This document shows, one piece after another, positions 2,608 through 64,000 of a stretch of DNA of 64,000 nt (position 1 is the first letter of the stretch; the number at the start of each line of letters is the position of its first letter). A model generated the notes under the pieces. The model saw only the letters and a list, made by a program, of their open reading frames with translations, was not told the DNA's origin and did not search any database. Source of the DNA: a virus (Duplodnaviria; Heunggongvirae; Uroviricota; Caudoviricetes; Crassvirales); the IMG/VR virus record IMGVR_UViG_3300035498_000265, positions 1 through 64,000 of that record; one strand, given 5' to 3'. The translations under genes and the position numbers were made by a program.

Positions 2608-3126
2608 ATAGCATAATCAATCATTTTCTACACAAAGGTATAGAGTATTATCATCTTTATCTTCTAAAGCTTCGTACTCTGCCTCTGTCAATGTAACAAT
2701 AGTTTTACCATTTATTTGTGAGTTAAGCTACTTTGATAGAGTGTCTGCATTGTTAGCAGTAGTCTTAATTTCATTAATATTATCTAGAGCCAAGTTCAAT
2801 CTAGCTGTAGCAGTATTAGCATTATCAGTAGCTGTCTTAGCATCTTCAGTTGCACTCTTAGCTTCCCCTGCAGCATCATTAGCTTCCTAGCTATATTTCT
2901 TAGCAGATTCAGCTGCTTCCTTTGCAGTACTAGCAGCTTCAACAGCAGGCTAAGATATTAATGAAATAGGAACCTTTACTAGTTCACTAGTATTAGTTTT
3001 ATATGAGGGGAGGGAGTCTACGTTATCTAGAGAGCTCACCTCTGCTAACTCATCAATACTAGTTGACTAAGTTGTAATCTCATTGATTACATCTTGTATT
3101 AGTTCTTGCCTTTCATCTGTAGTCAT
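2608..3126 (-). CDS. Ala/Thr-rich coiled-coil virion protein, 172 codons with 5 in-frame TAG
   Basis: Codon-by-codon translation from ATG 3124-3126 to TAA 2608-2610; in-frame TAG codons at 3067, 2950, 2887, 2728 and 2638. Confidence 0.45.
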
Positions 3127-3134
3127 AATTACTA

Positions 3135-4460
3135 AATCTATTCTTTATATTTCTTAGCTATTTCTATGAGAACATCACTATATTCAAATAACTCTTGATA
3201 CTTCTTTTCAAAGGACTTAACTTCATTTACCTTAATAACCATTGATTGTAGTTTAATTTCACCACTATAGTCTAAGGTAAAATCACCAGTACCATTCCAC
3301 AAGAAAGAAGATTTAAATGTATGATAATTTTCATCAGCTTCCAGTGCCTACTCTACTTTATAAATAGGTTTAGAATCATAGCCTTCATCAGACTCATTAT
3401 CTATAGAAACTTTTAAATTACCATCAGTTATAGCCTTATAACTAAAGATTAATGTTACATAGTAAGGCTTAGGCAATTCATCTAAATCAGTAGTAATTTT
3501 TCTTAGATTTTCATTCTTCTAAGTAATATAACCATTAACTAATTTAAGTAGAATTTGACCATCTTCAACTGTAACATAAGCACCTGTTTTCTTAGTAGTC
3601 AACAGGGTCTTATTAGTCATTACAAAGTTGCCTTTAGCCTTAAAATATTTAGCACTATTCTTAGTTAACCAACAGTCCATACTATCAATAAAGTATGGGT
3701 TATTAAGTAGATTCTCATAGCCAAATTCCTATCTAACACTAGCTAAACCAGTATTAATAGTAGCAGCATTTACTGTCACTAATGAGGCTAAATCCCTACC
3801 TTGATTATCTATGAATGTGCCTTTAAAGTAAACATTTTCACCAAAAGCACTCCAAGTATTAGTAGAACTTTGTCCTAGTCTAAAGGTGTAATTTGTATTA
3901 ATATTATCTAGGCTTACATTTACAAATTGAGTTAATACCATAACTCCATTGTATTTGTGAAGCATTAATACTTTTTGCCTTAGTCTATCTTCAGTACTAC
4001 CTACAAGGTATACTGTGTCGTACTTATTAGGGTGAACAGCATCTCTACTTATATAAGCATAATTATCTTTAACATACTCAACCTTGGCATAAGTTCCATT
4101 GAGATTAGAGTCTATGTTAAATCCTATTATATCATTACCTTCAAATATATTATCTTTGAAAGTTATCTTATAATAGTCTTCCTCAGTGGTTACTTCTGTG
4201 ACTTCAGAGTGAGAATTAAGTATTAATAAATCCTCTACCTAAGGGGGACTAAATACTGTGAACTCATCTCCTCTGTAATCATAGATAGTTTCATTCTCTT
4301 CTACATAGACTAACATCCCCTTTCTAAGTTTATCAGGGATTATGCTATCCCTCTCTTCTAGAGTAGAGACTTGCATAAATCCACCCCTTAGATTTAATGA
4401 GTCTAGTAAAGCAAAGTTTGAATTACCACTATGTTTAATTTCACTTATAAACTTAGGCAT
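3135..4460 (-). CDS. Structural (tail?) protein, about 440 codons with in-frame TAGs
   Basis: ATG 4458-4460; track fragments 4239-4460 and 3729-3965 share a frame and are joined only by TAG codons; 3-prime end approximate. Confidence 0.35.
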
Positions 4461-4462
4461 AA

Positions 4463-5197
4463 TTATTTAAATTCAATAGTTAAAGTTCCTAAGCTATTCC
4501 ACTTAGATATATACTAAGTACCTTCAATAGTAGCTCCCTAGTCATTAATCATAGAAGTAACTTCTTCATCTATATTAAAGCTATCTGTAGAGTCTATACC
4601 ATTTATATATATTTTTGAATACTCTAGTGACTTAGGTATAAACACTCTTAGATAGTCTTCATCAGGGACATTTATGTCATAGTTACTAGTGGGATTGATT
4701 GCCTTTTGGCTATTCTCAGAAGTACTGATGTAAATATACTCAATGAAGTTAATAGAAGTAGTGCTAAAACTAGTATTAGTTCCATCTGAAACTTCTATTA
4801 TAAATGTAGTATCTTTATCTATACTTTCTGATATATCATAAGACCTCTTAGTAATGTCAATAGACTCACCATTTAATACTTGGGAAAGTAATAATTTCTT
4901 ATTATAATTCCAAGTGAAATTAAGTTCATCTATCACTGTACCCACTTCATAAGTGCCACTCTATTTTAAATGAAGGTCAACTTCAGGAGTTACATAGATT
5001 AGCTTATCTAGGGCTTCTTTAACTGTAGTTATTGAGGTATCCTCAGAGGTAGTATATTCAACCTCTGGGGATTCCATCTTATTAAATCTCTACCAGGTAT
5101 TATCACCCCAGTATAATAGTTTACCTTTCCAATACCATAAGACTTCATGGTCTAGAGGTTCTTTAGGTGTCTATACTATAGCTCTAAACTTTCTCAT
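4463..5197 (-). CDS. Virion protein of about 244 codons with in-frame TAGs
   Basis: ATG 5195-5197 overlapping the TAA of the upstream gene (TAATG); TAA at 4463-4465; includes track ORF 4538-4945. Confidence 0.4.
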
Positions 5198-7602
5198 TAT
5201 TTAGTCTTATTTGGTTTATTAATTTGCTTTCTTTTTAATTCAGCATCAGTCTTAGCTTTGTCTTTATCAAACTATAGCCTCTGCTTGTCTAGCTTTAGTC
5301 TCTCATCAAACTCTCTTATCTTCTCTAGTAAATTAGCTCTAGACTCTTCAGAGAATTCAGGTTCAGGAGTTTCTTCAGAATTAGCTCCAGCTGATATAGT
5401 AGCAACTAATATCTTAGTCTCATTATCTCTAATGTTCATTTGCTCTTTAAGTTGCATCTCAGCTTCTTTCTATTGAGCCTCCATTTGCATCTATTGCTAT
5501 TGAGCTTCTAATGCTTGTTGTTGAGCCTGCTGCTGTCTTTCAAGAAGCTCCCTTTCATTCTTCTCAACCATCCTTTGTTTTTCAGCGAGAGATGAACTAT
5601 TATAGAGTTTCATAATAGTAGAGAAGTTCAAAGTCTGATTCTATAAAGCAGCTTGAGCAAGCATATCCATCTTCTGTTGAAGTTCTTGAATAGCATTACT
5701 ATTATCAACAACTAAGCCATAATCTGCTTCAGCGAATTCATCCCCATCTATATCCATAATCCTCATAGAATTATCAGATAAGATATATTGGAACTTCTTG
5801 TTATTGCCTCTTAAAGCTATCTTAGCAGTCTCTAAGAAACACTCTAATGCCCTTCTCTTAACATCTTCATGATGAATGAATAGCCACTCTGTAATATGTG
5901 AAGACTGTAAAGTAGCTCTTTCTACACCACCAACAGTTTCTCTATTACTAATCTAACCCTCTCTTTGTTTAGAGATACCTGCTACATCAGACATCTCTGA
6001 CTTAATGAATTCTAGTAAATTAACATCTTGCTGAATTATATTTCCTAGTTCAGCATCTATTACTCCCCTAGACGCATTATTAAGAGCGCCTGCTATCTTA
6101 CCAGTAGCAGCTCCAACGTTACCTTCTTTAAAGCTATCAATTACTGCTAGGTTATTAGTTTTAGCATAGTACATCCACTTCTGAATATCCCAACCAGCAG
6201 GTACTTTAGATAAGTCTAGCTCTAAGATTTTACCCCAGTTTTTAGCTAGTAACTTATTAAGTCTATCATGAACAGTGTCATATAAATAACTATATGGCTT
6301 CATCATGTCTACTAGTGAGAATGGCTTACTATCATTTAGATTATAGATAGAGCCTACTATACCAAAATGACATCTAGAAGGGTTAGCTAGTCTGTTATAC
6401 TGAACTACTCTAGGTCTCATATTAACATAAATGCTATTACCTATCTTAGTCCCTTCCCAAGCTTCATTAATCCATAGAATCTCTTCTTCTTCTCCTAAGT
6501 CCTTATTGATTACATAAGTCTCTGGGTATAGAGTAAATATCTCATCCCCTGTTTCCTAGTCATAGGATTTAACCTTTTTAATCTTTCTCCTAGACTTCCA
6601 GTACATCCTAAGAACTTTCAGATTACCAGCTAGGTCATAAGGAAGAAGAGAACTACTAGTAGAATCTGAGAATAAGCCGTTAGCATCAAAATAAAACCCT
6701 TCTCCTGAAGGTACTCCATTATCTAAAGTAACTGGGTCTATAAAACCATATCTCTCGTCTATATTATCCATTGAGTCTTTAGCAGGACTATCTAAGCTAT
6801 TAGGAGCTTTCTCTATATACTCCCTATCCTTAGCTGTTAGTACATCATAGTAAGTATCTATGATTTTACCAGGACTCCAGTAGTCCTCTATTATAACTAA
6901 ATCAGCATCTTCTATCCTATTGCTAAAGCCTGATTTAAATATTCTAATGTTAAGAGGATTAACCCTCTCAATAACTGGTTCACCACCAACTATATCACAT
7001 TGATAAATCTCTTCACCAATAGCCATAGCATCCATGAAACCCTAGTTAAAAATATAAGGAATATTTAGTTCTTTAACATAATGATTAAGTAGAGCATTAG
7101 CCCTAACTTCCCTCATATCCTACCACTCATATAAGAAGTAGTCATTCATTCTATCTAGTTCAGCTTCAAACTCATCTTCACTCTAAGTTGTATCTTGAAT
7201 GAGCTATTGCATCCTAGCTAGAATTTCTTTCTTCTTAGCTTCCTCTATCTCTGATATAGCATTAGGATTAGTTACCACTACTCTATAGTCAAATACTCTC
7301 TTTGATTCCTCACCTCTGAGTACATTTAATTTAGAGTTCATAATAGGATAGTGCTAAATCTATTCAGGTATAAAATCAGCCTCTAAGTTCTCTGGGTTAA
7401 GAACTAATTGTAAGTCCTCCATGTGTAACTTACCGTTAAGTAAGTCATAGTTTATTTTCTTATGAAGAACAGATTTTCTTACTAAACTATGATTGAAGAA
7501 TGTCTTACCCTAGGCCCAATCTAAGTGCCTTTTTCTCCAGACTTTATTCTTCTTACTAAAAGGAAGCTACTGGGGAGGTAAATTTGTAATATCGTTTCCC
7601 AT
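5197..7602 (-). CDS. Portal protein candidate, about 800 codons with at least 12 in-frame TAG
   Basis: Track fragments 7035, 6420 and 5457 are all in one frame; hand translation from ATG about 7600-7602 to TAA 5197-5199 crosses only TAG; size, position next to terminase and Q-rich coiled-coil C-terminus fit a portal. Confidence 0.45.
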
Positions 7603-7676: not shown

Positions 7677-9954
7677 TTACCTTAGACTCTTTTTGCTAAA
7701 TTTACTGTGTCTATCATCATAATTCTTCTTAAAGAATGGGTCATTACCTAGGTAAGAGTTATTATTTCTTTCACTCTTTTCTCTACTTACTTCACCATTA
7801 TATAGTATTAGCTTATCTTCTCTAAGCAGCATTAACATACCCATAGCCGATATTCTATCAAAGTTGCCCATAGGGTTATAGCCAATTAACTCTTTAATAA
7901 GAGCCCTATTCCTTATTGAATATAGATTATAGACCTAAGTCTCAGTAGGCTCACCATCAACTTCAGTAGTAATTGTAACTGGCTTTAATAGCCAAGACCT
8001 AAGTAAGTTTTTAGCAAAAGCATTAACAGGAGCAGTAGCAGTAGTACCCTTAGCTGTATTACCATAGCCAGGTCTAGCTAGTTGCTTATCCCTAAGAAAC
8101 TCCAATACATCTGTTAAATAGTGCAGGCAGTTCATCTTTGAAAAATGGCTAAATAAGCCCTTTTTATTCTGCTCATAGTTTAGCTAGCCATTATAAAATA
8201 CACACAGCCTTCTACATATTTCAAAGTAATCCTCTGCATACATAGGCCTACCTGTGTATTCTGCTACTATTTTATCAGTCCATAAGTCTAATACAAATAT
8301 AGAACCTAGAGACATAGTATTAGCTTCATCATTATCATAGGGGTCAGCACCCAAGATATACCTAGAACTAAATGGCTTATTAGTCTTTTTATCTATCTCA
8401 GGCATCTAGAATATCTCTATAGAGCCCTCTATCTTATTATCTTTATGAGGGAAGTCCCTTATAGGATTCTTAGAAGTAGGGTTAAACTCTACTGTACCCC
8501 CTTTAGTTATTATAAGTTCACCAGTGTATACATCATCAAATTCAGCGGGATTACTATCTATCTAAGCTAACCTCTCTGACAAATCAGTAACTGGGAACAT
8601 ATTAACCCCAGTCTTAACGATAGCTTCTGCTGGAGTTATAGGAACCTCTGCTATAGTTTTAATGATAGTGTTAGAGTCTGTAGAGTTATACTTTACTCTA
8701 TATCTATTCATGAGTATCTCTAGTAAAGCTTTAATTACATCAGATACACCATCCTAATTATAGCAGCCTTTCCTATTAACATAACCAGGAAAGAAAAATA
8801 CAAACTCTTTCTAGCCCTAGTTATTCTTATCAAAGACATTAGGTAAGGGGTACATATTATAACCCCTAGGATTATACATGATTTCCTGAGCACCAGCAAA
8901 GTCTGACTCATTATCACCAGCAGTACCCTGTAGATACATTAGACCAAATACATAATCACCTTCCTATACTGAGGGAAGCATAACATTGTATAGGTCAATT
9001 AACCTAGGGAAAGTACCAAATTCCTCTACACCAATAAAAGCAGCCCTCTTACCTCTAAGTTTAGATTCATCATCCTTTGATGATACCCCTAGAACCTAAT
9101 TTAAAGTGCCCTTCTCAATGTCTAAATCAGCGTCTTTATAACCCATAGTCCAGGTCATATCCTATATAGCACTCTTTAATCTTTTCCTAGGAAACTAAGT
9201 ATATTGAGCACAGAAGTTTGCCATAGACACAAACTTATTAAGAACACCGTCCTTGATTAGATATTCTTTCTGATAGGCAGTTGCTAATGAGGTTATACTA
9301 TTGCTGGCTATTTTATTCTCACCTAATATAAAATTATGAGTTAGTACAGAGGCCATACTATATGACTTTGATTTACCCCTAGCAGCTAACTCAGCACCAT
9401 GATTACCACCTAAGAATTTATTATATAGACCACCATTTCTAGCCTAATCCATATAATGGAATCTCCAATATATTCCTTCCCAAAACTCAGGGAAGTCTAT
9501 AACCCTATCAGCCTATTTAGTACCTTTCCTAATCTTAGATTGAATAATAGGACAATAGTTTAAATAGAAATAAAGTAAACCTGGAACCCATTCACCATCT
9601 GAAGGTCTAACATAGCCATCCCAACACCTCCTTACTTCTTCTCTAATCCACTTACCAAATTCACTATTAGGATTAGCATTAGGTCTTAGATTAGTGAAAC
9701 TACCATACTTCTTATAATGAAGAGCGGTAGGTCTAAAGTAATCCATATCCTATAATATGTGAGGATTTGCTAGGTCTACTATAATCCTACCTTTATCATC
9801 CTTAGGCCTATCCTTAGCATATTGTCTATCAGGAGAAATTAATCTCCTGATAAACTCAACATTATTTATTGTATCAAACAACTAATCCTAAACTTCTTGA
9901 GGAATATCCTTTAGAAGTTCATCAGTTATTGGTGTTTGATATTGGTTCATTATC
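7677..9954 (-). CDS. Terminase large subunit candidate, about 759 codons with in-frame TAGs
   Basis: Track fragments 9746, 8405, 8135 and 7871 share a frame; P-loop-like ARGKSKS near N-terminus; acidic nuclease-like C-terminal half; TAA at 7677-7679. Confidence 0.5.
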
Positions 9955-10269
9955 ACCATAACTACCTCCTAATATAAGGTTAAAGTCACTAGTTCTTATA
10001 CTCCTAAATAGCCTAATAACTAAGTCTTCTTCTATAGACTTAACTACTTTAGCTTCCTCCTCAGGAGATGTAACTCTATCTACTCTAGACACAGTTATAT
10101 AAGGAGCTTTATATTTAGTTGATTTATCTACATACCATATAGTATATATAAATCTTTTAAATGCATTCATTCTAGTGTTCTCTACAACCTTTTGTAGTAC
10201 AAATACTGCGTAGGGGTTAGACTCCCTAGTATATAATTCTAGTGCTTCTACAACTGCTCTTATATCCAT
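9922..10269 (-). CDS. Hypothetical 115-aa protein (TGA stop, no internal TAG); possible small terminase or DNA-binding partner
   Basis: Track ORF; ATG 10267-10269 lies 2 nt after the upstream TAA; overlaps the start of the terminase gene. Confidence 0.4.
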   Translation of the reverse strand: MDIRAVVEALELYTRESNPYAVFVLQKVVENTRMNAFKRFIYTIWYVDKSTKYKAPYITVSRVDRVTSPEEEAKVVKSIEEDLVIRLFRSIRTSDFNLILGGSYGDNEPISNTNN

Positions 10270-12629: not shown

Positions 12630-12783
12630 AATAAATAAGTATAAATTCGTGACCTTCTTTAGTGAGAGTTACTATATCATCTCTTTTAATGTCAAGTTCC
12701 CTAGCTATATTAACAATAGCCCTAATAGTAGGAGCTGTTACAGCTGTAATTATCTTGCCACTTTTAATTGTACTTTCTCCCAT
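12618..12783 (-). CDS. Small protein of about 54 aa, AbrB/swapped-hairpin-like (weak)
   Basis: ATG 12781-12783 (MGESTIKSGKIITAV...); overlaps the downstream gene start. Confidence 0.25.
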
Positions 12784-12803
12784 ATAAATAAAGTTTTAAT
12801 AGT

Positions 12804-12871
12804 GACGGAGGTGGGTAACGCTCCCACAAAGTCTGGCTTATGAGACCAGATGGCGGACTTCCGCTCTCCGC
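12804..12871 (-). tRNA. tRNA-Met-like (anticodon CAT), atypical: short D region and imperfect acceptor
   Basis: Canonical anticodon arm CTGGT-CTCATAA-GCCAG on minus strand; hairpin GTGGG-AGCGTTA-CCCAC in the T-arm position; only 68 nt between putative ends. Confidence 0.35.
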
Positions 12872-12877
12872 AAATTG

Positions 12878-12951
12878 AGCAGGTAATGGGGCTTGAACCC
12901 ACAACTTTCAGTTTGGAAGACTGACACTCTAACCAATTGAGCTACACCTGC
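12878..12951 (-). tRNA. tRNA-Gly (anticodon TCC)
   Basis: Acceptor GCAGGTG/TACCTGC, D-arm GCTC..GAGT, anticodon arm TCAGT-CTTCCAA-ACTGA, T-loop TTCAAGC. Confidence 0.7.
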
Positions 12952-12956
12952 ATTAG

Positions 12957-13029
12957 AGCCTCCTAGAGGACTCGAACCCCTAACACTCTGACTACAAAAC
13001 AGAAGTTCTACCAGTTGAACTAAGGAGGC
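12957..13029 (-). tRNA. tRNA-Thr (anticodon TGT)
   Basis: Acceptor GCCTCCT/AGGAGGC, D-arm GTTC..GAAC, anticodon loop TTTGTAG, T-loop TTCGAGT. Confidence 0.65.
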
Positions 13030-13242
13030 ATATAGTGTTATTTCCTAACACTAATTTCATTTACCTAATCATAAAAGTCAATCACCCATTGCTCATTAGA
13101 CAACTCAAGGGTAGTAACATAAGTGTCTATTTTATTTAGTGCCATCAGGGTTTTCTTCATCAATTTCTTGATTAAAGATATTAACCATTTCATTAGTATA
13201 TCTTCTAACTTCTTCATGCTTTGAATTATATTTTAAGTGCTG

Positions 13243-13330
13243 TTGCCTCAGTAGGACTCGAACCCACACTAACTCCTTCAAAGGGAAAACGGATTTAGAG
13301 TCCGCTGTGCTACCATTACACCATGAGGCA
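13243..13330 (-). tRNA. Amber-suppressor tRNA (anticodon CTA, reads UAG); type-II body with about 21-nt variable region, U1-A72, discriminator A
   Basis: Minus-strand sequence TGCCTCA-TG-GTGT-AATGGTA-GCAC-A-GCGGA-CTCTAAA-TCCGT-(21 nt variable)-GTGGG-TTCGAGT-CCTAC-TGAGGCA-A; perfect 7-bp acceptor; loop CUCUAAA has U33 and A37. Confidence 0.75.
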
Positions 13331-13398
13331 GTGTTTTATTTTCACATTGCAAAGATAAGAAAAATAATTTAAACTACCAAATAATTTGGCAAAAACTT

Positions 13399-13740
13399 TT
13401 AGAAAAAGTGTAAATAAAGTGGAGATAGGATAGTATATAAAGTTTTAATATACCAAGGTGAGCCTATGTTTAAATCAACTGAACAAGTCCTAGACTTATA
13501 TATCCCTAGAGAATAACATAAATTATGAACTCTCCACTCATTTATCATACTAAATAAAGACCTATCTTGAACTGCATATTTATACTCACTAGTAGATATT
13601 TCATCTCTCACTAGTAGTAAAAAAGCTTTCATGTCTGAAATACTCTTTAGTCTCCAAGATGCTTCTATGTTAGTATTACTAGATGATAATACTACCTTTA
13701 CTATGTAGTTATTGTAATTTATTGTTAGCTTTCTTTCCAT
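13399..13740 (-). CDS. Hypothetical 113-aa protein embedded in the tRNA array (no TAG, TAA stop)
   Basis: ATG 13738-13740 lies just 3-prime of tRNA-Leu(TAG); the track ORF 13399-13860 is the same frame but its 5-prime part overlaps tRNAs and is not coding. Confidence 0.3.
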   Translation of the reverse strand: MERKLTINYNNYIVKVVLSSSNTNIEASWRLKSISDMKAFLLLVRDEISTSEYKYAVQDRSLFSMINEWRVHNLCYSLGIYKSRTCSVDLNIGSPWYIKTLYTILSPLYLHFF

Positions 13741-13741
13741 G

Positions 13742-13828
13742 TACCCAAGGTGAGACTCGAACTCACACTCTACTATTACTTCGACATAGCTTCTAAGACT
13801 ATTGTGTCTGCCATTCCACCACTTGGGC
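13742..13828 (-). tRNA. tRNA-Leu (anticodon TAG), type II
   Basis: Acceptor GCCCAAG/CTTGGGT, anticodon arm ATAGT-CTTAGAA-GCTAT, long variable region, T-loop TTCGAGT, discriminator A. Confidence 0.6.
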
Positions 13829-13834
13829 ATATAG

Positions 13835-13908
13835 TGGAGATTGTGGGTATCGAACCTCACATCTAAGGATTTTCAGTCCCCCGCATAGACCATCTTTGCT
13901 AAATCTCC
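13835..13908 (-). tRNA. tRNA-Phe (anticodon GAA)
   Basis: Acceptor GGAGATT/AATCTCC, anticodon arm GGGGA-CTGAAAA-TCCTT; T-arm slightly irregular. Confidence 0.5.
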
Positions 13909-13974
13909 ATGTTAGTTTATTCAGGTCTCATCCTCTGTCACCACTCATAAACTAAGAGCAAAAACTTGTTGAAG

Positions 13975-14056
13975 TGGGAATAGCTGGAGTTGAACCAACT
14001 TAGCCTTTGGCAACGGTTTTACAGACCGCACTAATTCACCGCATTAAAGTATTCCC
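13975..14056 (-). tRNA. tRNA-Tyr (anticodon GTA), type II
   Basis: Acceptor GGGAATA/TATTCCC, anticodon arm GCGGT-CTGTAAA-ACCGT, 13-nt variable arm, T-loop TTCAACT, discriminator A. Confidence 0.65.
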
Positions 14057-14060
14057 TTAG

Positions 14061-14133
14061 TCTTCCCACTGGGATTTGAACCCAGAACCTTTTGATTAAG
14101 AGTCAAAAGCTCTACCAATTAAGCTATAGGAAG
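14061..14133 (-). tRNA. tRNA-Lys (anticodon CTT)
   Basis: D-arm GCTT..GAGC, anticodon arm TTTGA-CTCTTAA-TCAAA, T-arm CTGGG-TTCAAAT-CCCAG. Confidence 0.6.
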
Positions 14134-14370
14134 ATGTGTAGCCTTATAGCTGTTTTAGAGAGTTTATTCCTAGGAAATGGCTACCAGCTCCTCTTATATA
14201 TACTATTTTATGACGAATACAATTTAAGAGGGAATTATCTCAAAGGAATCATTCCCGAAGGGCAGTAGTATAAACTTGCTGACCTAGTAAAATACCAAGT
14301 AGCTGCCCTCTTAACTAAGTTTAAAGCTTTCTTCATAATTAAAGATTTTATAGTTAAACATGCTACTTAG

Positions 14371-14442
14371 AGACTCCTGTGGGAGTCGAACCCACGCTCA
14401 TAGTTTTGCAGACTATTGCCTTACCAGCTTGGCTAAGGAATC
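14371..14442 (-). tRNA. tRNA-Cys (anticodon GCA)
   Basis: Acceptor GATTCCT/AGGAGTC, anticodon arm ATAGT-CTGCAAA-ACTAT, T-arm GTGGG-TTCGACT-CCCAC. Confidence 0.65.
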
Positions 14443-14492
14443 ATAAACTATCCTAGAGTTTGATATACAGGGACTCTAGGTAAGCTCGAGCG

Positions 14493-14565
14493 TACTGTGG
14501 ATAGGACTTGAACCTATAACCTCTTGTGTATAAGACAACCGCACTAACCATTGTGCTACCACAGT
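14493..14565 (-). tRNA. tRNA-Ile (anticodon TAT)
   Basis: Acceptor ACTGTGG/CCACAGT, D-arm GCAC..GTGC, anticodon loop CTTATAC, T-loop TTCAAGT. Confidence 0.55.
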
Positions 14566-14575
14566 GAAATTATTG

Positions 14576-14647
14576 TAGGCATAAGTAGAATCGAACTACT
14601 ATTACAAGAATATCAGTCTTGCTTCCTAACCATTAGAAGATATGCCT
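14576..14647 (-). tRNA. tRNA-Ile (anticodon GAT)
   Basis: Acceptor AGGCATA/TATGCCT, anticodon arm CAAGA-CTGATAT-TCTTG, T-arm AGTAG-TTCGATT-CTACT. Confidence 0.6.
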
Positions 14648-14653
14648 ATGTAG

Positions 14654-14724
14654 CAAAGGTGGAGGGAATCGAACCCCCATTGCTAGTTTTGGAGACTAGA
14701 GTAATACCATTATACCACACCAAT
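14654..14724 (-). tRNA. tRNA-Trp (anticodon CCA)
   Basis: Anticodon arm CTAGT-CTCCAAA-ACTAG, T-loop TTCGATT; acceptor has two U-U mismatches. Confidence 0.5.
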
Positions 14725-14735
14725 ACTTACAGCAA

Positions 14736-14945
14736 TTATAACCTATGATTCATATATTCTTCACTTTCCATTAAAGCTCTGATTTGTCTTTCTAGAGAAC
14801 ACCCAGGCTCATACATATCTAATATAAGAGGGTAAGGGTAAGGATTTTCTATACCAACATAAGTATTCTTAGGTTTAGTATCTACCTCCGCTAGAGTCTT
14901 TAACCAAGCTAAATAGTCAGAGTAACTCTGTTGTTTATATTCCAT
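14736..14945 (-). CDS. Hypothetical 69-aa protein between tRNA blocks (TAA stop)
   Basis: Track ORF; standard stop, no TAG. Confidence 0.3.
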   Translation of the reverse strand: MEYKQQSYSDYLAWLKTLAEVDTKPKNTYVGIENPYPYPLILDMYEPGCSLERQIRALMESEEYMNHRL

Positions 14946-15087
14946 AATAAATTTAAAAGTGCTGCCATCATCAGCCTCGGCAGCTAAGGTAGGTTCTACG
15001 ACACCTAAAAGACGTTCACTACATATTGTATATATAGTTCTTCCAGTTACGTTGAGTCTTACACTAGTACTATTCTCTTTATTATTG

Positions 15088-15160
15088 CTCCCCCTATAGG
15101 GCTCGAACCTATGACCATCACATTAACAGTGTGCCGCTCTACCAACTGAGCTAAGAAGGA
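15088..15160 (-). tRNA. tRNA-Asn (anticodon GTT)
   Basis: D-arm GCTC-AGTTGGTA-GAGC, anticodon loop CTGTTAA, T-arm ATAGG-TTCGAGC-CCTAT. Confidence 0.6.
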
Positions 15161-15168
15161 ATATTTAG

Positions 15169-15240
15169 TGGACTAACAGGGGCTCGAACCCTGAATTATA
15201 GTTCGCAAAACTATTGTTATACCAGTTTAACTAAAAGCCC
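15169..15240 (-). tRNA. tRNA-Ala (anticodon TGC) with G3-U70
   Basis: Acceptor GGGCTTT with a G3-T70 wobble (the Ala identity pair), anticodon arm ATAGT-TTTGCGA-ACTAT, T-arm CAGGG-TTCGAGC-CCCTG. Confidence 0.55.
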
Positions 15241-15244
15241 ATAG

Positions 15245-15317
15245 TATGGTAGAGAAGACTCGAACTTCCAACCTCTTGGTCCCAAACCAAGAGCACTGCC
15301 TATTGTGCTACTACCAT
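15245..15317 (-). tRNA. tRNA-Pro (anticodon TGG)
   Basis: Acceptor ATGGTAG/CTACCAT, D-arm GCAC..GTGC, anticodon arm CTTGG-TTTGGGA-CCAAG, T-arm GGAAG-TTCGAGT-CTTCT. Confidence 0.7.
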
Positions 15318-15323
15318 AAGTAG

Positions 15324-15410
15324 AGGAGAGCATTAGACTCGAACTAAAGCCACTTTTACATGACCACTTTGCTTAGCAGGCAAGCCCTACTCCTAGTAGG
15401 TTTACTCTCC
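15324..15410 (-). tRNA. tRNA-Ser (anticodon GCT), type II
   Basis: Acceptor GGAGAGT/GCTCTCC, anticodon loop CTGCTAA, long variable arm, T-loop TTCGAGT. Confidence 0.55.
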
Positions 15411-15421
15411 ATAAATTTTAG

Positions 15422-15513
15422 AGGAGGATGTCAGACTCGAACTGACACATCGCTTTTACACGATTACTAGCAGTTTTCAAGACTGCTGCCTTACCAATTA
15501 GGCTTAATCCTCC
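15422..15513 (-). tRNA. tRNA-Ser (anticodon TGA), type II
   Basis: Acceptor GGAGGAT/ATCCTCC, anticodon arm GCAGT-CTTGAAA-ACTGC, variable arm of about 23 nt, T-arm GTCAG-TTCGAGT-CTGAC. Confidence 0.65.
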
Positions 15514-15627
15514 ATAAAGGAGCCCACTTACACCTTCACAGGCTGAGTGGGATAATGATTTAATCTTTGTATCTTTACATCGTAACAACAAATCACCACA
15601 ACAAAATGTCTTATAGTGTCTTATAAG

Positions 15628-15699
15628 TACTCCCTGAAAGAATCGAACTTTCATCAATAGCTTAGAAGGCTATGGCTTTATCCATTAAGCTAAGGAAGC
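15628..15699 (-). tRNA. tRNA-Arg (anticodon TCT)
   Basis: Acceptor GCTTCCT/AGGGAGT, D-arm GCTT..AAGC, anticodon arm ATAGC-CTTCTAA-GCTAT, T-arm GAAAG-TTCGATT-CTTTC. Confidence 0.65.
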
Positions 15700-15738
15700 A
15701 TTGTGTTTTGAATTACAGTGCAAAGTTAAGTAAAATTT

Positions 15739-15767
15739 TTGACATATGCAAATTTTTACTGAATTAT
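15739..15767 (+). promoter_or_regulatory. Box TTGACATATGCAAAT (copy 1), sigma70 -35-like, with weak -10 AATTAT 17 nt downstream
   Basis: Exact 15-mer shared with 16400-16414; contains the near-palindrome ACATATGC. Confidence 0.3.
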
Positions 15768-15782
15768 TTTCAATTATTTGAT

Positions 15783-16094
15783 AACTTTCTAATCAATTAA
15801 GGATTTAAGACACCTAGCTACCCACTCTACCATAGGCTCATCTGATGATGCATTATGGTATTGACCTTCCCTTAATATAGCATGAATTAGCTCATGCAAT
15901 AAAGTTATTTTATATTCACTAGTGTCCATAGGCTATCCTTTAGAATCATATTTAGATAACCAAACCTAGTTAGTTACAGTGTTAGTCATACCAGCAATAA
16001 AAACATCTTTCTCATCTGTTTCTATCTTATCTACCTATTCTAAGGTGTATTTAGTACCAAATAAATCAAATTCTTTAACCTTTAATTTTCTCAT
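15783..16094 (-). CDS. Small HExxH zinc-metallopeptidase-like protein (ImmA/IrrE- or SprT-like), about 103 codons with 4 in-frame TAG
   Basis: ATG 16092-16094 (MRKLKVKEFDLF...), motif TLLHELIHAIL; in-frame TAG codons; ends at TAA 15783-15785. Confidence 0.4.
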
Positions 16095-16399
16095 AGTTAT
16101 CCTCATTCCTAGTTAACTTAACCTCAATTTAAAAGTTATCATTTATAAAGAGACCTGCCCCAATAGCCAGTGAAGGAGCTCGGCACAAAATTAATAATAG
16201 CATTGAGGGCGTTTATATATTATTAGTTTTCCTCTTAGTTATCCCTAGCTCCAATTACCTCTGCCCTACTAATGGTATCCTTTACTTTCCCATGTTGGCT
16301 TGGAGACCTCTCAACTATATTAATTTCTTCTCTTTTTACAATGAGGTTATGTCTTCTAGTACTTATATGTCCTAGTGATTGCAAAGGTAAGAAAAAAAA

Positions 16400-16434
16400 T
16401 TGACATATGCAAATCTTTTAACAATTTTTATGAT
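16400..16434 (+). promoter_or_regulatory. Box TTGACATATGCAAAT (copy 2)
   Basis: Exact repeat of the 15739 box at the edge of the divergent early control region. Confidence 0.3.
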
Positions 16435-16488
16435 TTGTCTAACAAAATAATTTTTTTAATTTTTCTGAAAAATTTTTTGGAATTTTTT

Positions 16489-16518
16489 TTGATTTTACTT
16501 GTAAGAGGGAGATATAAT
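16489..16518 (+). promoter_or_regulatory. Sigma70-type early promoter: -35 TTGATT, 18-nt spacer, -10 TATAAT
   Basis: Hexamers read directly from sequence; sits about 80 nt upstream of the first plus-strand early gene in an AT-rich, T-tract-rich region. Confidence 0.4.
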
Positions 16519-16596
16519 ATAAACACCACTCCACCATTCCTTTGACAATTGGGGATAGTCCCCCTCCTTATTACTAACTCATTAAATATTACCACT

Positions 16597-16818
16597 ATGT
16601 CACAAGAACAAGGCAAAGCTGCTTGGATGACACTCTCTAAGCAAGACCAAGACTACCTAGTAAGTCACCTAGAATCAGACAAAGTATCTGACCACATTGA
16701 CCTCATCAAGGCACTAGACTGCTATGACCCAATGACTAAAGTAGCCTATGAATGGCTAGAAGCCAACAGACCAGACTTACTAGCTAAGCTACTAGAACTA
16801 GACGACATCTATGGCTAA
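16597..16818 (+). CDS. Early hypothetical protein, 73 aa
   Basis: Track ORF 16549-16818, trimmed to the first ATG downstream of the promoter; TAA stop. Confidence 0.45.
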   Translation: MSQEQGKAAWMTLSKQDQDYLVSHLESDKVSDHIDLIKALDCYDPMTKVAYEWLEANRPDLLAKLLELDDIYG

Positions 16819-21032: not shown

Positions 21033-21391
21033 GGAGTATTTCTGGGCTCTATATTTGGGGTATCATGGTATTGATTGCATATGTATTAGTAGAAGAACAT
21101 GGGGAGGGCATACTCCTAAAATAGCAAACTAAATTTAAACGCAGACACTTATACTACTGCATATGATATGGCTGCTTAAGCCTATCATCGAGTAGCACTT
21201 ACTTTGGAACAGAAAGGTGCAAACACAAACTTCTACAATAATATAAGTAGAATAGATTTCTCTGTTAGATTAAATAGAGTGGTGGAAGACTTCTGGTCAA
21301 CCTTGTGAATAAAACACATTAAAATTGAAAACTATGTATAATTCTTTTATTATGAGTGTGTAAGACGAGGGTTCGACTCCCTCATACTCCA
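21033..21391 (+). ncRNA. ssrA: tmRNA (ssrA-like), about 359 nt, tag peptide A-DTYTTAYDMAA
   Basis: 5-prime GGAGTAT-TTCTGGG... pairs with 3-prime ATACTCC-A following the T-arm GAGGG-TTCGACT-CCCTC; internal frame GCA GAC ACT TAT ACT ACT GCA TAT GAT ATG GCT GCT TAA at 21141-21179; no protein ORF on either strand. Confidence 0.75.
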
Positions 21392-21421
21392 CTAAAACTC
21401 AATTAACTTAAAACCCAGATT

Positions 21422-33734: not shown

Positions 33735-33785
33735 GCTTTAATTATAATAGGGAGTCTTAGGACTCCCTTAACTGTTTTTTTTTGT

Positions 33786-36748: not shown

Positions 36749-36749
36749 T

Positions 36750-58000: not shown

Positions 58001-60013
58001 GAGTATTATGGTAACAATAATTCAGCTAGTAGTCTACTAGGTATATCAGCTGTAAATAGTGTAGCTCATGCTATACTAGTCAGTGATAATATTGGGTTAG
58101 ACCTAACAGGAACATTCATTCCTACTATAGCTGGAAATGCTTTTAGCTCAAAAATGCAACTAGATAAATCATTAGCCAATGATAATGCTTCTATAGCTGA
58201 AACTTTAGGTAGCTGTGTAGCAGCATCAGCGGATGCAGCTAAAGACCCTGTATTAAACTTTATGAATCTAAATCCTCAAACTTTTAATGTTTATACAACA
58301 TTGATAAGATTAGGTATTCCTAACTCAGTAGCAACTTTATTGATGTCTTCTAAGGTACTAGGTGACGCTGTAGTTGAAGCTAACGCCAGAACACTTAAAG
58401 GTGAATGGTCAACTCCAGAGTCTATCCTTAGAGAGAAAATGTCTGATGATGAATTAAAAGACTTAGGCTATGATATACAGTCTCCTATCTTCACTGAACC
58501 AATCACCAGAGATGAGTTAATAAAAGGGCTAGTTGATGATGACTTAAATGTATCCTTAAAAATCTCAAAAGCTTTAATTGCTTTGTTTGATGTGTCTAGG
58601 AAAGTTAGATTAGCTGACCAAGTAACTAGGTATAATTCAATATCTAGTGCTGTAGGCCCATCTACTCTAGACAATTATATCTTCCAAGAGAAACTGAAGG
58701 AACTAGATAATAGCTCTTCTCTTGTAGATATGAACAATCCTGAGGGAGACCACCTGAGAACAAAGCAGTTGTTAGAAAGACATAAAATGTTATCAAAGTT
58801 TAGTGAAGCCTATAAACTAGCAGACAGTGTGTTAGTGGATGATATGCCTTTAACTAGTGCATTCTTAGATAGTATTAAAACTATCTATGCTACGCCGTTT
58901 GTAGCAGGTCTTGAGTTAAAGTTTGGACTACCAGATGTAGTTAAAGGTGATAGGGCTGTTATGGGTAAATTGAGAGACTTCTTTACTGCTTGGACTGCAG
59001 TTAAGAATGGTCTAGTTAATTATGATGAGCTTGGCTATTTAAGTAAGCAGTTCCCAAGAACACTTACTGCTAAAAAGAAAGAACACAGTGACAACTATTT
59101 AGCTCAAAACTTATATTTAAATATAGACAATAGGTCAGGATTTCCCATTGTAGCTATGAATATTTCTATGATTGAAAAAGAATCTAGAGATAAATTAGCT
59201 GCATCTTGGGCGGACTTATACACTAAGGACGAAAAATTTGCTATGGATTTATTTAAATATAGCTTCTTTAGAGGTGGATTAGGATTTAGTCCTAAGACAT
59301 TCATGAGTGTACTTCCCATCCAAATGAAAGTTAAGATGAAAGGATACTTAGACCTCTTTAAGAAAGTTGAGACATTGAGTGAGACTGAAGTTAACTTAAT
59401 GTATAAGCAGTTCATTAGTAATAACTATATGGACAATAAGGTAGCTCCAGTTATGTCAGGAATTAGCCCTGATAAAAATGGTAGAATAACAATAAGTAAA
59501 GACAATAAGAAAGCCAATTCCTTTAAGGGTGTAACTTTCTTTAAGACTATTACTAAGCCAAATACTGAATTTGGTGAACCTGTTATTAGACTATATCAAT
59601 GTGTAGGTGGTTATGAAGAAGGCCCTGTTTATAGGATGTATGAAGAAATTCCTAAACTGGGTGCTGAAGGTAACTTCTTAGAACTATCTACCGAAGAAAT
59701 AGAACAAAGTGAGTTTGATGTTAGGTTTGATTAGGATGATTCAGGTGAATCATTCTTACCACCTAGTCCTGATGATATTCCTGTTGATAGAACCCCAACT
59801 GCTATTGAGGCTAAGAGAATAATGAACGATGTTATGACATCTTAGCAACAACAAGCAGTTAGGGAAGAAATTGCCAAGAGAGAAGGTGCTATAAAGGAAG
59901 CTTATATCGCTAGATGCATGGCAAGAGCTGAATCTATTATACTAGAGAAAGGCTTTAAAATATCAAACTCAGCAAAAGACTTAGCTGAGGAAATAATAAA
60001 AAAACTTTGTTAA
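52019..60013 (+). CDS. Giant late protein, 2664 codons (10 in-frame TAG only in the first ~340 and last ~90 codons); zincin HExxH near N-terminus, DFDVD near residue 1804; candidate virion-packaged RNA polymerase or ejected cargo protein
   Basis: Frame opens after TAA 52001-52003; first ATG 52019; HEIIHE at 52826-52843; DFDVD at 57431-57445; track ORF 53027-59734 is the TAG-free core; TAA at 60011-60013. Confidence 0.45.
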
Positions 60014-60014
60014 T

Positions 60015-63000
60015 ATGGCAAAAAGTACAGGCTGTAAAAGAGCTCCTGAAATAAATGGAGAACTAAGTTAGCTATATCTGGATTTATTCGATATGCTAAA
60101 AAATAAATATAAATTAGATGCAGCTGCTGCTAGACAGGTAACTAATGTTATCTATGTCTAGTATGCATCTAATGACTAGTTAAAAGCATCACTAGATAAC
60201 CTAAATAAAGCAAGAAATAGTCAGGACTAGCATAGTGCTGATGATGTCTTTGATGCTATAGGAGGTGATGAACTAGTAAAATATGCAGCTATTGACGGTA
60301 TGAATGAACTTAACTCTCTCAGTATATCTGAGGGAGTTAAGCTCGATACTGTTCATAATGTGGAGTTTACTAATTGGGAAGACGCTTATACTAAAGCATA
60401 GGATATAAATACAGCGCATCCTACTTTAAGTGCGTATGTAATTCAATAGAATGGTAAATACATAGTTAAGATTAACAATATGACTAGCTTAAATATGGCT
60501 GATAGGGTAACTACAGACATAGAAAATCAATAGATGCAACTATTAAAGAATGCATTAGCTAGTGTTAATCTAAACATAGATGATATTACCTTTGCACAAG
60601 ATACCTTCTTTGGAAGAAGATATAATAACTTAGTAAGTTGGATTAGGAATATACCTAAGACTGACCCTAAGTATTTAATGAAGGATGATTTAAAGATGCT
60701 TATTTCTCTCTTTCAAAGAGAGCAGATAGTAGATAGAATCATAACTAAATTCGGAGGAATTGATGACCTAGTAGATGCTTACTATGGGTGGTATAGAGGT
60801 ACTTATACAGCTACACCTACTACTGAAACCCAATTAAAAGCAGCTATGGATTTAATGTAGAGCTTCAATGGTTTAGATGTTGATGCTCTATATACAAACT
60901 CTAAAGACCTAACAGACCAAATAAAGAATAATAGTGTAGATTATAATGCTAGACTATTATGGGAAAAGCTTAATGATGCATTTAAGTTAGATAGTGTGTC
61001 AATATAGACTTCTATAGATAGACTTAATACTATAAGAGAAGTAATAGCTTAGACTATTAAATCATTAGGTGTTGAAGCTAATGCTCTAAGAGGAGATAGC
61101 TAGAAAGCTGTTAGGGATGATTTATTAAATAGAATTGAAGCTCTAGATAAAGACTTAGAGCAAAGACAATATACCTCAGGACTAGCTGAGTTCTTAACTA
61201 ATGCTGCTACTAGATTATAGGATATGTTACATGAATTAGTAGTACCTATATCATAGGGCGCAGATATGAATGATATACATCAAAGAGGCTCTGCTTTAAG
61301 AAGAGCTGCTCAGTATATGCAAGTCTATAAACCTATTATAGAGAGTATTTCTAAACTAGATGGCTTAGAGAGAGATATTGATATTACTGACTAGGATGTA
61401 TAGAGACTACAAGCAGAAGCAGCTAAGTTAAATAATACTATAGTAGAGATTAACTAGGCTATTAAAAATAGTATAGATATGTGGGCTAAGTAGGCATTAT
61501 CTTTGATGTTAGTAGAAAATTCAGAGATAACTATTGATGATGTCATGGACAACTTAAAGGTAGATGCTACTTGGTTTGATAGAATGTACAATGTTACTAA
61601 AGTTAGTCAAATACCCACTGCAGTTATAGGTAACTATATCTAGGAAACTAGAAGATAGAGAACTATGAGATTAGCTCATATAGCTGATAGAATAGGTGCT
61701 ATATTGTAGACTAAAGACCCTGTTACAGGTAAGAGCTCTAATATGAAGAATAGGAATACATCATTTATGTATGAGCTAGTAGACTCTGAGTTTGGTGGTG
61801 GTAAAAAGGAGTACAAAATTATAAGTGAGTACGATTTTAATAAGTACTATGAGCTAAAGAGAAAATAGGCTGGAAGGTTAAAAAAGAGAGGTGTAACAGG
61901 GGCTGCATTCAATCTAGCTATGGAAGCTTGGGTTAATAATAACACAGATACTATTGTAGTAGACTAGGTTACTAATAGAACAGAAAGAGTTCCTAAAGTA
62001 AAGAAAGCACAGAACCCTCTTGATAAACTGTCAGAGACTGAAAGGGCTATATATGATTAGTTCTTAGACTTAAAAGGAGAGATAGATAGTATGCTTCCAG
62101 AGTTCGCTAGAAGCAGGTATAACCCTCCCCAATTAAGAAAGAATGCTCTAGATTAGCTAGGCTAGGGTAAAGTTGGTAAGGCTGTTGCTGAGAAATATAA
62201 ATCTAACTTTAGTGTTAGAGAGGATGAAGAAGGGTTTGGTTAGATTAAGGAAACTGATGATGGGGAAGTAATATCAACTTACACAGATATGACTGGTAGT
62301 ACTGATATAGTCCCAGTTAATTATGTACAGAAGCTTAAGAATCAAGATGAGCTATTATTAAACTTCTCAGAGGGATTACTTCACTTAGCATCCTCAGCTA
62401 TTAACTATGATATTATTAAGGGTATAACTGATACAGTAGAAGTTCTTAGTGACTATGTAGTAGATAAAGTACATCCTATGTAGAATGGGCTAGAGCTAGC
62501 TCAAACATTCACTTATGGAACTAAACTATTCTATGAAGTAGGTAAAAGAGGTAAACATGATATTTCTAATGTAGAAAGAATACTACAAGATTAGAAAAAG
62601 AGATTACTCTATAATGATACTACTGCAGGTAGGTCAGTCAAAGTAACAAAGGGCTTAAACTTTATTAGAAAAGTAACTTCAGTATAGGCTCTTAGTTTTA
62701 ACCTATTTGGTGCTATGAATAATGCATTAGAGGGCTATAGAAAGAACTTAGAGGAAGCTATAACATATGGTACTGATACCTTTGACCTTGTTGACCTTGA
62801 GTGGGCTCATGCAGTTATCTTTGGTCTCCACCCACTTGAAGGGGTAGGTCATATAAAGGATTTCTTAACAGGTAAAAGAACTCATAAAGGCAGCTTAATA
62901 GTTAATAGGTTTGACCCTAAGAAAGAGAAATACCATGAGATAGCTAATAGAAAATATAGGACTAATTTCTTTAGGACTTTAGTATCTAAGGATTTAACTA

Positions 63001-64000
63001 TGATTATGTATGGCTTTGGTGAAACTCTTAATAACTTACCTATTATATATGCTATGTTGCACCATGTTAAGGTAACTATAGATGGTAAGAAAGGCACACT
63101 ATATGATGCTCTTGAAGTAAGGTAGAGAGCAGATGGAACTAGTGAATTAGCACTTAAGCCAAAAGTAATTAATATCAAAACTGGAAAGCATGTCACAGAT
63201 GCCGACTTAGATGAGTTAGCTAAGAAGATGAATGAAGTCTCTGAGACTAACCACGGTGGTATGTCTGATGAAGCTAAAGGTGAAATAGCTTCAACTCTAC
63301 TAGGTATGATGACTCTACAACTTAGGAGATGGATGATTGGTGTCTATTCTAAGTACTTTAGAGGTGAATACTTTGATGCATCTACTGGTAAAAAAAGAGA
63401 GGGTGCTTGGAAGGGTGCTTATGATTTTCTAAGTATGATAGCAAAAGATATGAAAGGTATGCCTTGGAGCTTAGACTGGGGACATGATATGAGGACTTTC
63501 AGTTAGGAATGTATAAAGAATTGGCATAACTTTAAGCCTCATCAAAGGAAAGCAGCTGTAAGCTTTGCAACTACAACGGTTTTAATGACAGTATTAAGCT
63601 GGCTAGTAGATGGCATTGTTAGAAGTTACTACCCCTCAGATAAGGATGAAATATGGTTCAAAGTAGTATTTTATCTATTAGCAAGACAGAGAATGGATGT
63701 TCAGTCTACTGTACCTGACTTAAAGCATCTAGAGAGAGTTGGATAGATTGGTACAAGTATGATTGAGATTATGGATAAACCGTTTGCATCTTACTCTACT
63801 ATTGAGATGGCTACTTATTGGGTTACAGCTCTCCCAGAACAAGGTGAAGAAGTTAAATCTGGCCCTCATAAAGGAGAGGATAAATACCTGAGGGGATTGA
63901 GTAAGCATTATGTGAAACCACTAGAGCTATATTATAGACTAGAAGGATTGAAAGACACAGATGAGCTCATAGAAAGCTTAGGTGGACTAAAAGGTAAGTT
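60015..64000 (+). CDS. Second giant late protein (at least 1328 codons, continues past window end), about 35 in-frame TAG
   Basis: ATG 60015 lies 1 nt after the TAA of the previous gene; track fragments 60534, 62289, 62715 and 63228 are all in this frame, separated only by TAG. Confidence 0.45.

Follow-up and report, generated by a model that had tools for sequence, protein, structure and literature searches.

We examined a tRNA gene in a stretch of 64,000 nucleotides (nt) from a crAss-like phage (positions 1 to 64,000 of IMG/VR record IMGVR_UViG_3300035498_000265; hereafter, the window). The window has a G+C content of 34.7% and comes from a beta-group crAss-like phage near IAS virus; judged by the terminase, the neighbors of this phage are IAS virus, cr85_1, and crAss001. 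ARAGORN finds 21 tRNA genes and one transfer-messenger RNA (tmRNA) in the window. A minus-strand array of tRNA genes contains the only tRNA of the 64-kb window with the anticodon CUA, which pairs with UAG (Table 1). An original prediction, made from the letters alone, had described this gene as an 88-nt amber suppressor on a type II body.

The existence of the 88-nt suppressor was borne out by ARAGORN, which calls a tRNA at 13242-13330 on the minus strand (anticodon cta, at position 33), and by the Rfam tRNA model RF00005, which matches 13243-13330 on the same strand (59.7 bits, gathering score 29; E = 4.7e-11 in 14 kb). In this match, the full model (1-71) aligns as a normal cloverleaf with the CUCUAAA loop in phase, and 18 nt of the variable region are treated as an insertion. 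All the stems listed in the original prediction, together with the 21-nt variable region and the discriminator A, were found again on direct reading. Namely, the acceptor stem UGCCUCA/UGAGGCA has seven Watson-Crick pairs, including U1-A72, and is followed by A73; the D-stem GUGU/GCAC, with a U13.G22 wobble, closes the loop AAUGGUA; the anticodon stem is GCGGA/UCCGU, with a G27.U43 wobble; and the T-arm is GUGGG-UUCGAGU-CCUAC. The usual invariant bases are all present (U8, A14, G18G19, U33, A37, G53, T54, T55, C56, A58, and C61), and CCA is not encoded. With a 7-nt loop, U33, and a purine at position 37, ARAGORN and the covariance model agree on the phasing of the anticodon. This gene is a genuine tRNA with the anticodon CUA.

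ARAGORN assigned the isotype “Pyl,” a label that follows from the anticodon alone. Pyrrolysine tRNAs have a short variable loop, a small D-loop, an elongated anticodon stem, and pyl genes nearby. We rejected the assignment, as the variable region here has 21 nt, G18G19 is normal in the D-loop, the anticodon stem is limited to five pairs, and no synthetase is among the 20 ORFs scanned against Pfam. In single-sequence thermodynamic folding, the minimum-energy structure of the window tRNA is not a cloverleaf and the z-score is -1.5; for this reason we took such folding as uninformative. The point was settled by evaluating the five-arm cloverleaf directly (-25.6 kcal/mol, or 1.8 higher than the minimum free energy) and by folding the commonest member (L079) of the family described below, which has the five-arm cloverleaf as its minimum-energy fold.

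Table 1. Features of the suppressor tRNA, its array, and the TAG-containing late genes in the window
Feature	Position	Strand	Basis
Amber-suppressor tRNA, anticodon CUA, 88 nt, five-arm cloverleaf	13243..13330	-	ARAGORN; Rfam RF00005; member of a 13-sequence family
Anticodon CUA, pairs with UAG, loop CUCUAAA	13296..13298	-	ARAGORN position 33; covariance-model alignment
Variable region UUUCCCUUUGAAGGAGUUAGU, 21 nt	13268..13288	-	Alignments and sequence
Extra-arm hairpin UUCC-CUUUGAA-GGAG (U.G, U-A, C-G, C-G; 7-nt loop)	13273..13287	-	Compensatory change; folding energy
Promoter-like box TTTG-N20-TATCTTTG	13350..13381	-	About 20 nt upstream of the suppressor tRNA
tRNA array, 17 tRNA genes including the suppressor	12877..15699	-	ARAGORN and Rfam; no tRNA-Gln(UUG)
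Large terminase gene, 16 in-frame TAG	7677..9959	-	Open reading frames with TAG as sense; codon-level alignment
Portal gene, 15 in-frame TAG	5197..7602	-	Homologue in relatives matches P22_portal weakly
Late open reading frame, 12 TAG, runs off the window	1-2433	-	TAG-as-sense open reading frame
Late open reading frame, 4 TAG	2617-3144	-	TAG-as-sense open reading frame
Late open reading frame, 6 TAG	3129-4466	-	TAG-as-sense open reading frame
Late open reading frame, 5 TAG	4463-5200	-	TAG-as-sense open reading frame
Late open reading frame, >1333 amino acids, 32 in-frame TAG, runs off the window	60000..64000	+	TAG-as-sense open reading frame

Long late open reading frames (ORFs) emerge in the window once TAG is allowed as a sense codon. 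The late genes contain 87 TAG in 4411 codons, compared with 75 CAA and 29 CAG, so that TAG makes up 46% of CAA, CAG, and TAG together. The 38 early and middle genes on the plus strand (21400 to 52100), which include those for a helicase, a primase, DNA polymerase A, an anaerobic ribonucleotide reductase, and a thymidylate synthase, have no in-frame TAG in 9557 codons. Three of them end at TAG, with a backup stop 4 to 11 codons downstream. In-frame TAG is thus confined to the late genes.

A first residue tally against database terminases, made at the protein level, gave glutamine but was partly circular, and we set it aside. The closest terminase matches (88% identity; e.g., L001) come from recoded phages whose predicted proteins carry Q at TAG (matches P0001 to P0024, locus L001); residue counts taken from database proteins at TAG positions are circular unless checked on DNA. 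Because TAG had been pretranslated as Q in these proteins, the analysis was redone at the codon level on relatives verified to use table 11, that is, on genes that translate correctly with it (L002 to L004 for the terminase). Nine of the 16 TAG positions of the window terminase are CAG or CAA in these relatives. Between the window and the recoded L001, TAG exchanges with both CAG and CAA, in both directions.

We then aligned all late proteins to seven standard-code relatives, which covered 33 TAG sites. By majority residue, 17 of these sites are Q, 4 are K, and 2 each are R, I, and S, whereas no site has a majority of L or Y. At 8 sites, Q is present in every aligned relative (at least 4 each). 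Summed BLOSUM62 scores rank Q (79.5) above E (34.8), K (25.9), S (-0.5), Y (-48.6), and L (-56.1). As a control, the genuine Q codons of the window align with a majority Q at 66% of sites, and its genuine L, Y, and S codons with their own residue at 71 to 86%. Given the 33-site tally and this control, TAG is read as glutamine in the late genes. TAG and CAA differ by two mutational steps, and their exchange among recoded relatives, as well as among the other phages carrying the long-armed tRNA, is the pattern expected of synonyms. The decoding agrees with the remark in the original prediction that the literature mostly infers Gln: reassignment of TAG to glutamine in crAss-like phages was inferred previously (PMC7886860) and confirmed by mass spectrometry (PMC9523058).

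The suppressors of related phages place the window tRNA in context. Among the recoded relatives, twelve loci with four distinct sequences (L001, L005, and L127 to L137) have a 73-nt CUA tRNA with a 4-nt variable loop, in a slot between Leu(tag) or Lys(ctt) and Thr(tgt). The exception among those sampled is L109, a 1.1-kb contig from a second, diverged member of the window's clade, which has the long-armed form in that slot. No CUA tRNA was found in standard-code relatives. Homology between the window suppressor and those of L001, L005, and L137 covers the upstream flank and the initial 40 nt of the tRNA, and it ends at the variable region. The final 4 nt of that region (UAGU) correspond to the entire variable loop of the 73-nt suppressors (AAGU or UGGU). 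A separate observation in these arrays is a 73-nt tRNA with the anticodon UUA, an ochre suppressor, in the standard-code relative L018 (2321-2393). It adjoins Lys(ctt), in the place occupied by Lys(ttt) in L010, L012, and L008, and may be a suppressor that predates any recoding.

The acceptor end of the window tRNA is of the glutamine type. In the arrays of these phages, U1-(A/G)72 combined with G2-C71 and A73 occurs only in tRNA-Gln(UUG) and in the suppressors, which upholds the earlier view that U1-A72/G2-C71 resembles Gln identity. The Leu tRNAs of the arrays mostly have G1.U72, with a few G1-C72 or A1-U72; the Tyr tRNAs have G1-C72; and the Ser tRNAs have G1-C72 with U73 or G73. The acceptor end therefore matches none of the three class II isotypes that the original prediction had singled out for comparison. 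The D-arm points in the same direction: among 368 distinct tRNAs, the pattern GUGU-AAUGG(Y)A-RCAY (four pairs and a short loop) is found in 17 of 74 CUA tRNAs, 3 of 12 tRNA-Gln(UUG), and 1 tRNA-Ala, but in no tRNA-Leu. A published crAss tRNA-Gln (PMC7886860, supplement) has an identical D-arm. Of the identity set of the Escherichia coli glutaminyl-tRNA synthetase (GlnRS), the suppressor has a weak 1-72 pair (U1-A72), G2-C71, G10-C25, and U35. We also built ad hoc isotype profiles, from 4 to 34 phage tRNAs per isotype, which are no substitute for the tRNAscan-SE models; with the extra arm removed, these profiles rank Gln first, and the syntenic 73-nt suppressors also score as Gln.

The long variable arm had been taken as a hallmark of class II tRNAs. 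A long, paired arm is indeed present, with a 21-nt region, a stem of 3 to 4 bp, and one compensatory change. Yet the 3-bp D-stem, unpaired 13-22, and enlarged D-loop of class II tRNAs are replaced here by a four-pair D-stem and a 7-nt loop, and neither the acceptor end nor the decoded residue is that of a Leu, Ser, or Tyr tRNA. From these comparisons, the “type II body” appears better described as a class I, glutamine-type core with an added 15-nt hairpin located 5' of a normal 4-nt variable loop. We also rejected a Tyr origin. The tRNA-Tyr(GTA) said to be adjacent lies at 13974-14056, with Leu(tag) and Phe(gaa) in between. Its anticodon stem (GCGGU/ACCGU) is similar, as predicted, but the resemblance is limited to that stem: Tyr tRNAs have G1-C72, and the best identity of any of them to the suppressor is 0.71 (extra arm removed and anticodon masked).

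Two further features of the array deserve mention. The tRNA-Gln(UUG) that heads the array in most sampled relatives, both recoded and standard-code (e.g., L001 3335-3504, L002 2694-2766, and L127), is missing at window 15700-15775 on the minus strand, where a conserved promoter-like segment leads directly into Arg(tct); L137 also lacks the gene. The suppressor is thus the only glutamine-type tRNA in the window. In addition, a tRNA-Ile with the anticodon UAU (14492-14565, minus strand) adjoins Ile(GAU) and is found in several relatives as well.

The long-armed form is not limited to the window. A pattern scan of viral contigs for the anticodon arm of the suppressor, in which short and long variable regions were both allowed, returned 71 loci, 16 of them with a tRNA of at least 82 nt. 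Seven of these 16 loci and 34 metagenome loci form a long-armed family of 13 distinct sequences from about 40 gut and rumen contigs. In the family alignment, covariation extends to all seven acceptor pairs, which remain 100% paired, and to two pairs of the T-stem. That the D-arm and anticodon arm do not vary is partly imposed by the search pattern and should not be taken as conservation. Within the stem of the extra arm, two C-G pairs are invariant, and one pair changes from G-C in the commonest type to U-A in the window's type, while the arm loop is conserved as CYYUGAA. The arm is not a repeated element, as its 15-mer is present once in the window. The carriers are contigs of about 110 to 195 kb with a crAss-like terminase just 23% identical to that of the window. 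At their in-frame TAG sites, the aligned codon is TAG 151 times, CAA 60 times, and CAG 29 times, and any other codon at most 12 times; the long-armed family accompanies TAG as glutamine in other phages too. The extra arm is therefore real and recurrent.

We did not find a bacterial source for this family, since none of its members occurs in the 185,579 bacterial and archaeal species genomes scanned. The window tRNA has no match among GenBank phages at an E value of 1e-5, and a family member searched at E values of up to 1 gives only weak tRNA-Leu matches, indicating that the long-armed family is absent from that collection. A second long-armed group of CUA tRNAs has an apparent A1.C72 mismatch (L019 3000-3090, L024 249-340, L063 2894-2983, and L060 11874-11968); the arm loop of L019, CUGAA, is similar to that of the window's family. 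The CUA tRNAs of L047, L052, and L072 look like class II by eye, with Ser- or Leu-like D-arms, and might decode TAG differently. Long variable regions are found as well in nominally class I phage tRNAs (Met, Gly, and Cys) of 85 to 96 nt (L007 475-559, L008 4077-4161, L049 903-994, L052 4500-4587, L043 7803-7888, and L116 3607-3702). Extra arms are thus sporadic in phage tRNA arrays and not confined to suppressors.

Given these results, it is likely that a functional amber-suppressor tRNA inserts glutamine at UAG and so allows this beta-group crAss-like phage to translate its TAG-recoded late genes. The genes served would be those for the terminase, the portal, and the other late ORFs (presumably virion proteins), expressed in a Bacteroidota host that uses the standard code. 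The tRNA, whose glutamine-type features are U1-A72, G2-C71, A73, G10-C25, the 4-bp D-stem with its 7-nt D-loop, and U35, would most likely be charged by the host GlnRS. GlnRS is a class I enzyme that leaves the variable-loop face of the tRNA free in the known complex structure. If the host enzyme likewise relies on the acceptor end, U35, and the 10-25 pair, the extra arm would be tolerated because that face stays exposed. Bacteroidetes have GlnRS and lack GatCAB (PMC3927822). The identity elements for GlnRS are U35, the 10-25 pair, and pairs of the acceptor stem; two changes of acceptor pairs turned a long-armed amber tRNA-Ser into a glutamine acceptor (PMC9976931).

The suppressor may also have its own transcription start. 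The box upstream of the gene fits TTTG-N20-TAnnTTTG. This arrangement corresponds to the -33/-7 promoter consensus of Bacteroides. Boxes of the form TTTG-N19-21-TAnnTTTG occur three times in the 64 kb, all on the minus strand and in the tRNA region (13350-13381, 15721-15752, and 16382-16413). As 1.12 are expected, this number is not above chance, and the placement alone suggests that the suppressor has a host-type promoter of its own. Two of the three boxes precede a tRNA gene by about 20 nt, and the second and third are near-duplicates.

Several observations weigh against glutamine insertion by this tRNA as we propose it. The window covers 64 kb of a genome of roughly 100 kb, the remainder of which could encode another suppressor, a synthetase, or a release factor; a search for the rest of the genome yielded only an identical 11.9-kb contig, and none of the 20 window ORFs scanned against Pfam is a synthetase, a tRNA amidotransferase, or a release factor. 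Three identity elements of the E. coli enzyme, G3-C70, G73, and U38, are missing from the suppressor, which has C3-G70, A73, and A38 at these positions. A73 and a variable 3-70 pair are also found in the tRNA-Gln(UUG) of these phages, so the G3-C70/G73 rule of E. coli may not hold for this host. With 3 to 4 pairs contributing -2.3 kcal/mol, the extra hairpin is weak. Moreover, when the arm is included, the ad hoc profiles place Leu at or above Gln (38.5 versus 29.7 for the window sequence), and the best full-length matches among GenBank phages are tRNA-Leu genes with 71 to 73% identity and weak E values (2e-3 to 0.8).

The two last points bear on the origin of the tRNA. Its body could descend from a class II tRNA-Leu, for example Leu(CAA), whose anticodon is one change from CUA, as in E. 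coli supP. Identity would then have been switched to Gln by U1-A72 and a remodelled D-arm; the function, glutamine at UAG, would be the same. In favor of such a descent, the full-length suppressors score equally high with the ad hoc Leu and Gln profiles, the only full-length GenBank phage matches are tRNA-Leu, and identity to Leu(UAA) tRNAs reaches 0.79, about equal to the 0.78 for Gln(UUG). The slot just before Thr(tgt) is, furthermore, occupied by Leu(UAA) in the standard-code L008, L010, and L012, and A73 is also the leucine discriminator. We nevertheless consider Leu descent unlikely: the four-pair D-stem with a 7-nt loop is shared with phage tRNA-Gln and found in no Leu tRNA, the Leu tRNAs of the arrays mostly have G1.U72 or G1-C72 rather than U1-A72, and the GenBank matches are weak. 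The syntenic 73-nt suppressors, with the same upstream flank and 5' half, score as Gln, and their entire variable loop matches the last 4 nt of the long variable region.

If, instead, the tRNA had kept a class II identity, Leu, Tyr, or Ser would be inserted at UAG, and the TAG sites would be former Gln positions that tolerate replacement. The long variable region with A73, the anticodon stem resembling that of Tyr(GTA), and the overall similarity to Leu could be read in this way, and the original prediction likewise held that the body argues against Gln. The decoded sites make this exceedingly improbable, since Leu and Tyr are the majority at no TAG site, Ser is so at 2 of 33, and 8 sites are Q in all aligned relatives. 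TAG also exchanges with CAA among recoded relatives and other carriers of the family, the acceptor end is unlike that of the Leu, Tyr, and Ser tRNAs of the same arrays, and close recoded relatives have a class I suppressor in the same slot; the suspicion of a class II amino acid is thus not supported. It is also very unlikely that the long-armed tRNA is a damaged, nonfunctional copy and that TAG is decoded by another suppressor, encoded by the host or outside the window. While the other sampled recoded relatives of the clade, L109 excepted, use the 73-nt version, the window sequence does not fold into a cloverleaf at minimum energy, and only 64 kb of the genome is visible, the tRNA retains all invariant bases and scores 59.7 bits. 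The arm is conserved, with a compensatory change, on about 40 independent contigs from different phage groups in which TAG is Gln, and L109, a diverged lineage of the same clade, has it in the same slot. No second CUA tRNA is present in the window, and no member of the family was found in the species genomes scanned.

The extra arm is not required for decoding TAG as Gln, as the 73-nt suppressors of relatives show. We regard as doubtful, though worth stating, the idea that the arm is a selected functional element rather than a tolerated insertion. Compatible with selection are the conserved CYYUGAA loop in a family in which every acceptor pair varies, the presence of the arm in distantly related crAss-like phages, and the replacement of the 73-nt form by the long-armed form at the same slot in two lineages of the window's clade. 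The arm may act as an antideterminant against class II synthetases that approach from the variable-loop side, with lysyl-tRNA synthetase (LysRS) as the obvious candidate; LysRS mischarges CUA tRNAs in a “seesaw” with GlnRS (PMC1483225). Alternatively, a phage or host factor controlling the onset of suppression may use the arm as a handle. If the arm is selected, this would be the first natural glutamine-accepting tRNA family with a class II-like fifth arm.

Other genes of the window and its relatives were noted as well. The phage-encoded tmRNA (21057-21392, plus strand; 73.7 bits in Rfam) has the tag peptide ADTYTTAYDMAA and could be relevant to ribosomes that stall at UAG while the suppressor has yet to accumulate. 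An amidoligase-type gene cluster (33735-39513, plus strand) contains ATP-grasp, Peptidase_C26 (a glutamine amidotransferase-like family), a phiEco32-like COOH-NH2 ligase, a class II glutamine amidotransferase, and Amidoligase_2; TAG is the stop codon of the GATase gene. Five terminase homologues (P0025, P0026, P0028, P0038, and P0039) have about 1090 amino acids, are ~330 amino acids longer, and match Hom_end/LAGLIDADG-type Pfam families, consistent with inteins.

Recoding of TAG to Gln by a phage suppressor tRNA is already established, and in this regard the main biology described here is not new. Yutin et al. (2021, PMC7886860) reported it for the late genes of beta-group crAss-like phages in OFRY01000050, whose terminase has 15 reassigned TAGs, and a general model of phage recoding has been published (Borges et al., 2021 preprint, 10.1101/2021.08.26.457843; see also Peters et al., 2022, PMC9523058). 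The window phage is like these code 15 crAss-like phages in having a CUA tRNA within a phage tRNA array, TAG restricted to late genes, and TAG aligned with Gln; like OFRY01000050, it belongs to the group near IAS virus and has a terminase with about 15 to 16 TAG. In contrast, its suppressor has 88 nt and an extra hairpin arm, whereas those of the sampled syntenic relatives, except for L109, have 73 nt. The phage recoding literature searched does not, as far as we could see, describe phage suppressor tRNAs with a long variable arm, which is not proof that there is none. Theta-ribozyme-associated suppressor tRNAs, for 69% of which a Gln isotype is predicted, are also linked to code 15 (Kienbeck et al., 2024, PMC10879173). 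The window tRNA is, like them, a gut-phage CUA tRNA. Such tRNAs have a minimal HDV-like ribozyme directly 3' of them. The window tRNA, in contrast, has no adjoining ribozyme match: neither an HDV-like nor any other ribozyme was found by Rfam in 12700-16600 at E values of up to 1, a result that holds only if the family is in Rfam 15.

Among bacterial suppressors, E. coli supE (tRNA-Gln with CUA) shares U1-A72, G2-C71, G10-C25, U35, A37, and A31-U39 with the window tRNA, and GlnRS also uses the CUA anticodon as a determinant (PMC9976931). The window tRNA differs from supE in C3-G70, A73, and A38, in a variable region of 21 nt instead of 5 nt, and in its Bacteroidota host. With the class II amber suppressors supP (Leu), supD (Ser), and supF (Tyr) it has in common a long variable arm on a CUA tRNA, but it departs from them in its class I D-arm (four pairs and a short loop), in an arm of 3 to 4 pairs, and in the glutamine that it probably inserts. 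A further parallel is the engineered tRNA-Ser amber suppressor cited in PMC9976931, whose long arm is accepted by GlnRS once the acceptor pairs are glutamine-like.

The new part is therefore structural: conserved natural amber suppressors combine an acceptor end and D-arm of the glutamine type with a fifth arm, and the recoded sites that accompany them indicate Gln. Classing phage suppressors by shape only, with a long arm taken to mean Leu, Ser, or Tyr, can thus mislead the inference of a genetic code. The long-armed family also provides candidate scaffolds for engineered amber suppression. Unlike the engineered tRNA-Ser suppressor, it is natural and conserved rather than a laboratory mutant, and it would represent the natural counterpart to the laboratory finding that GlnRS accepts a long-armed tRNA.

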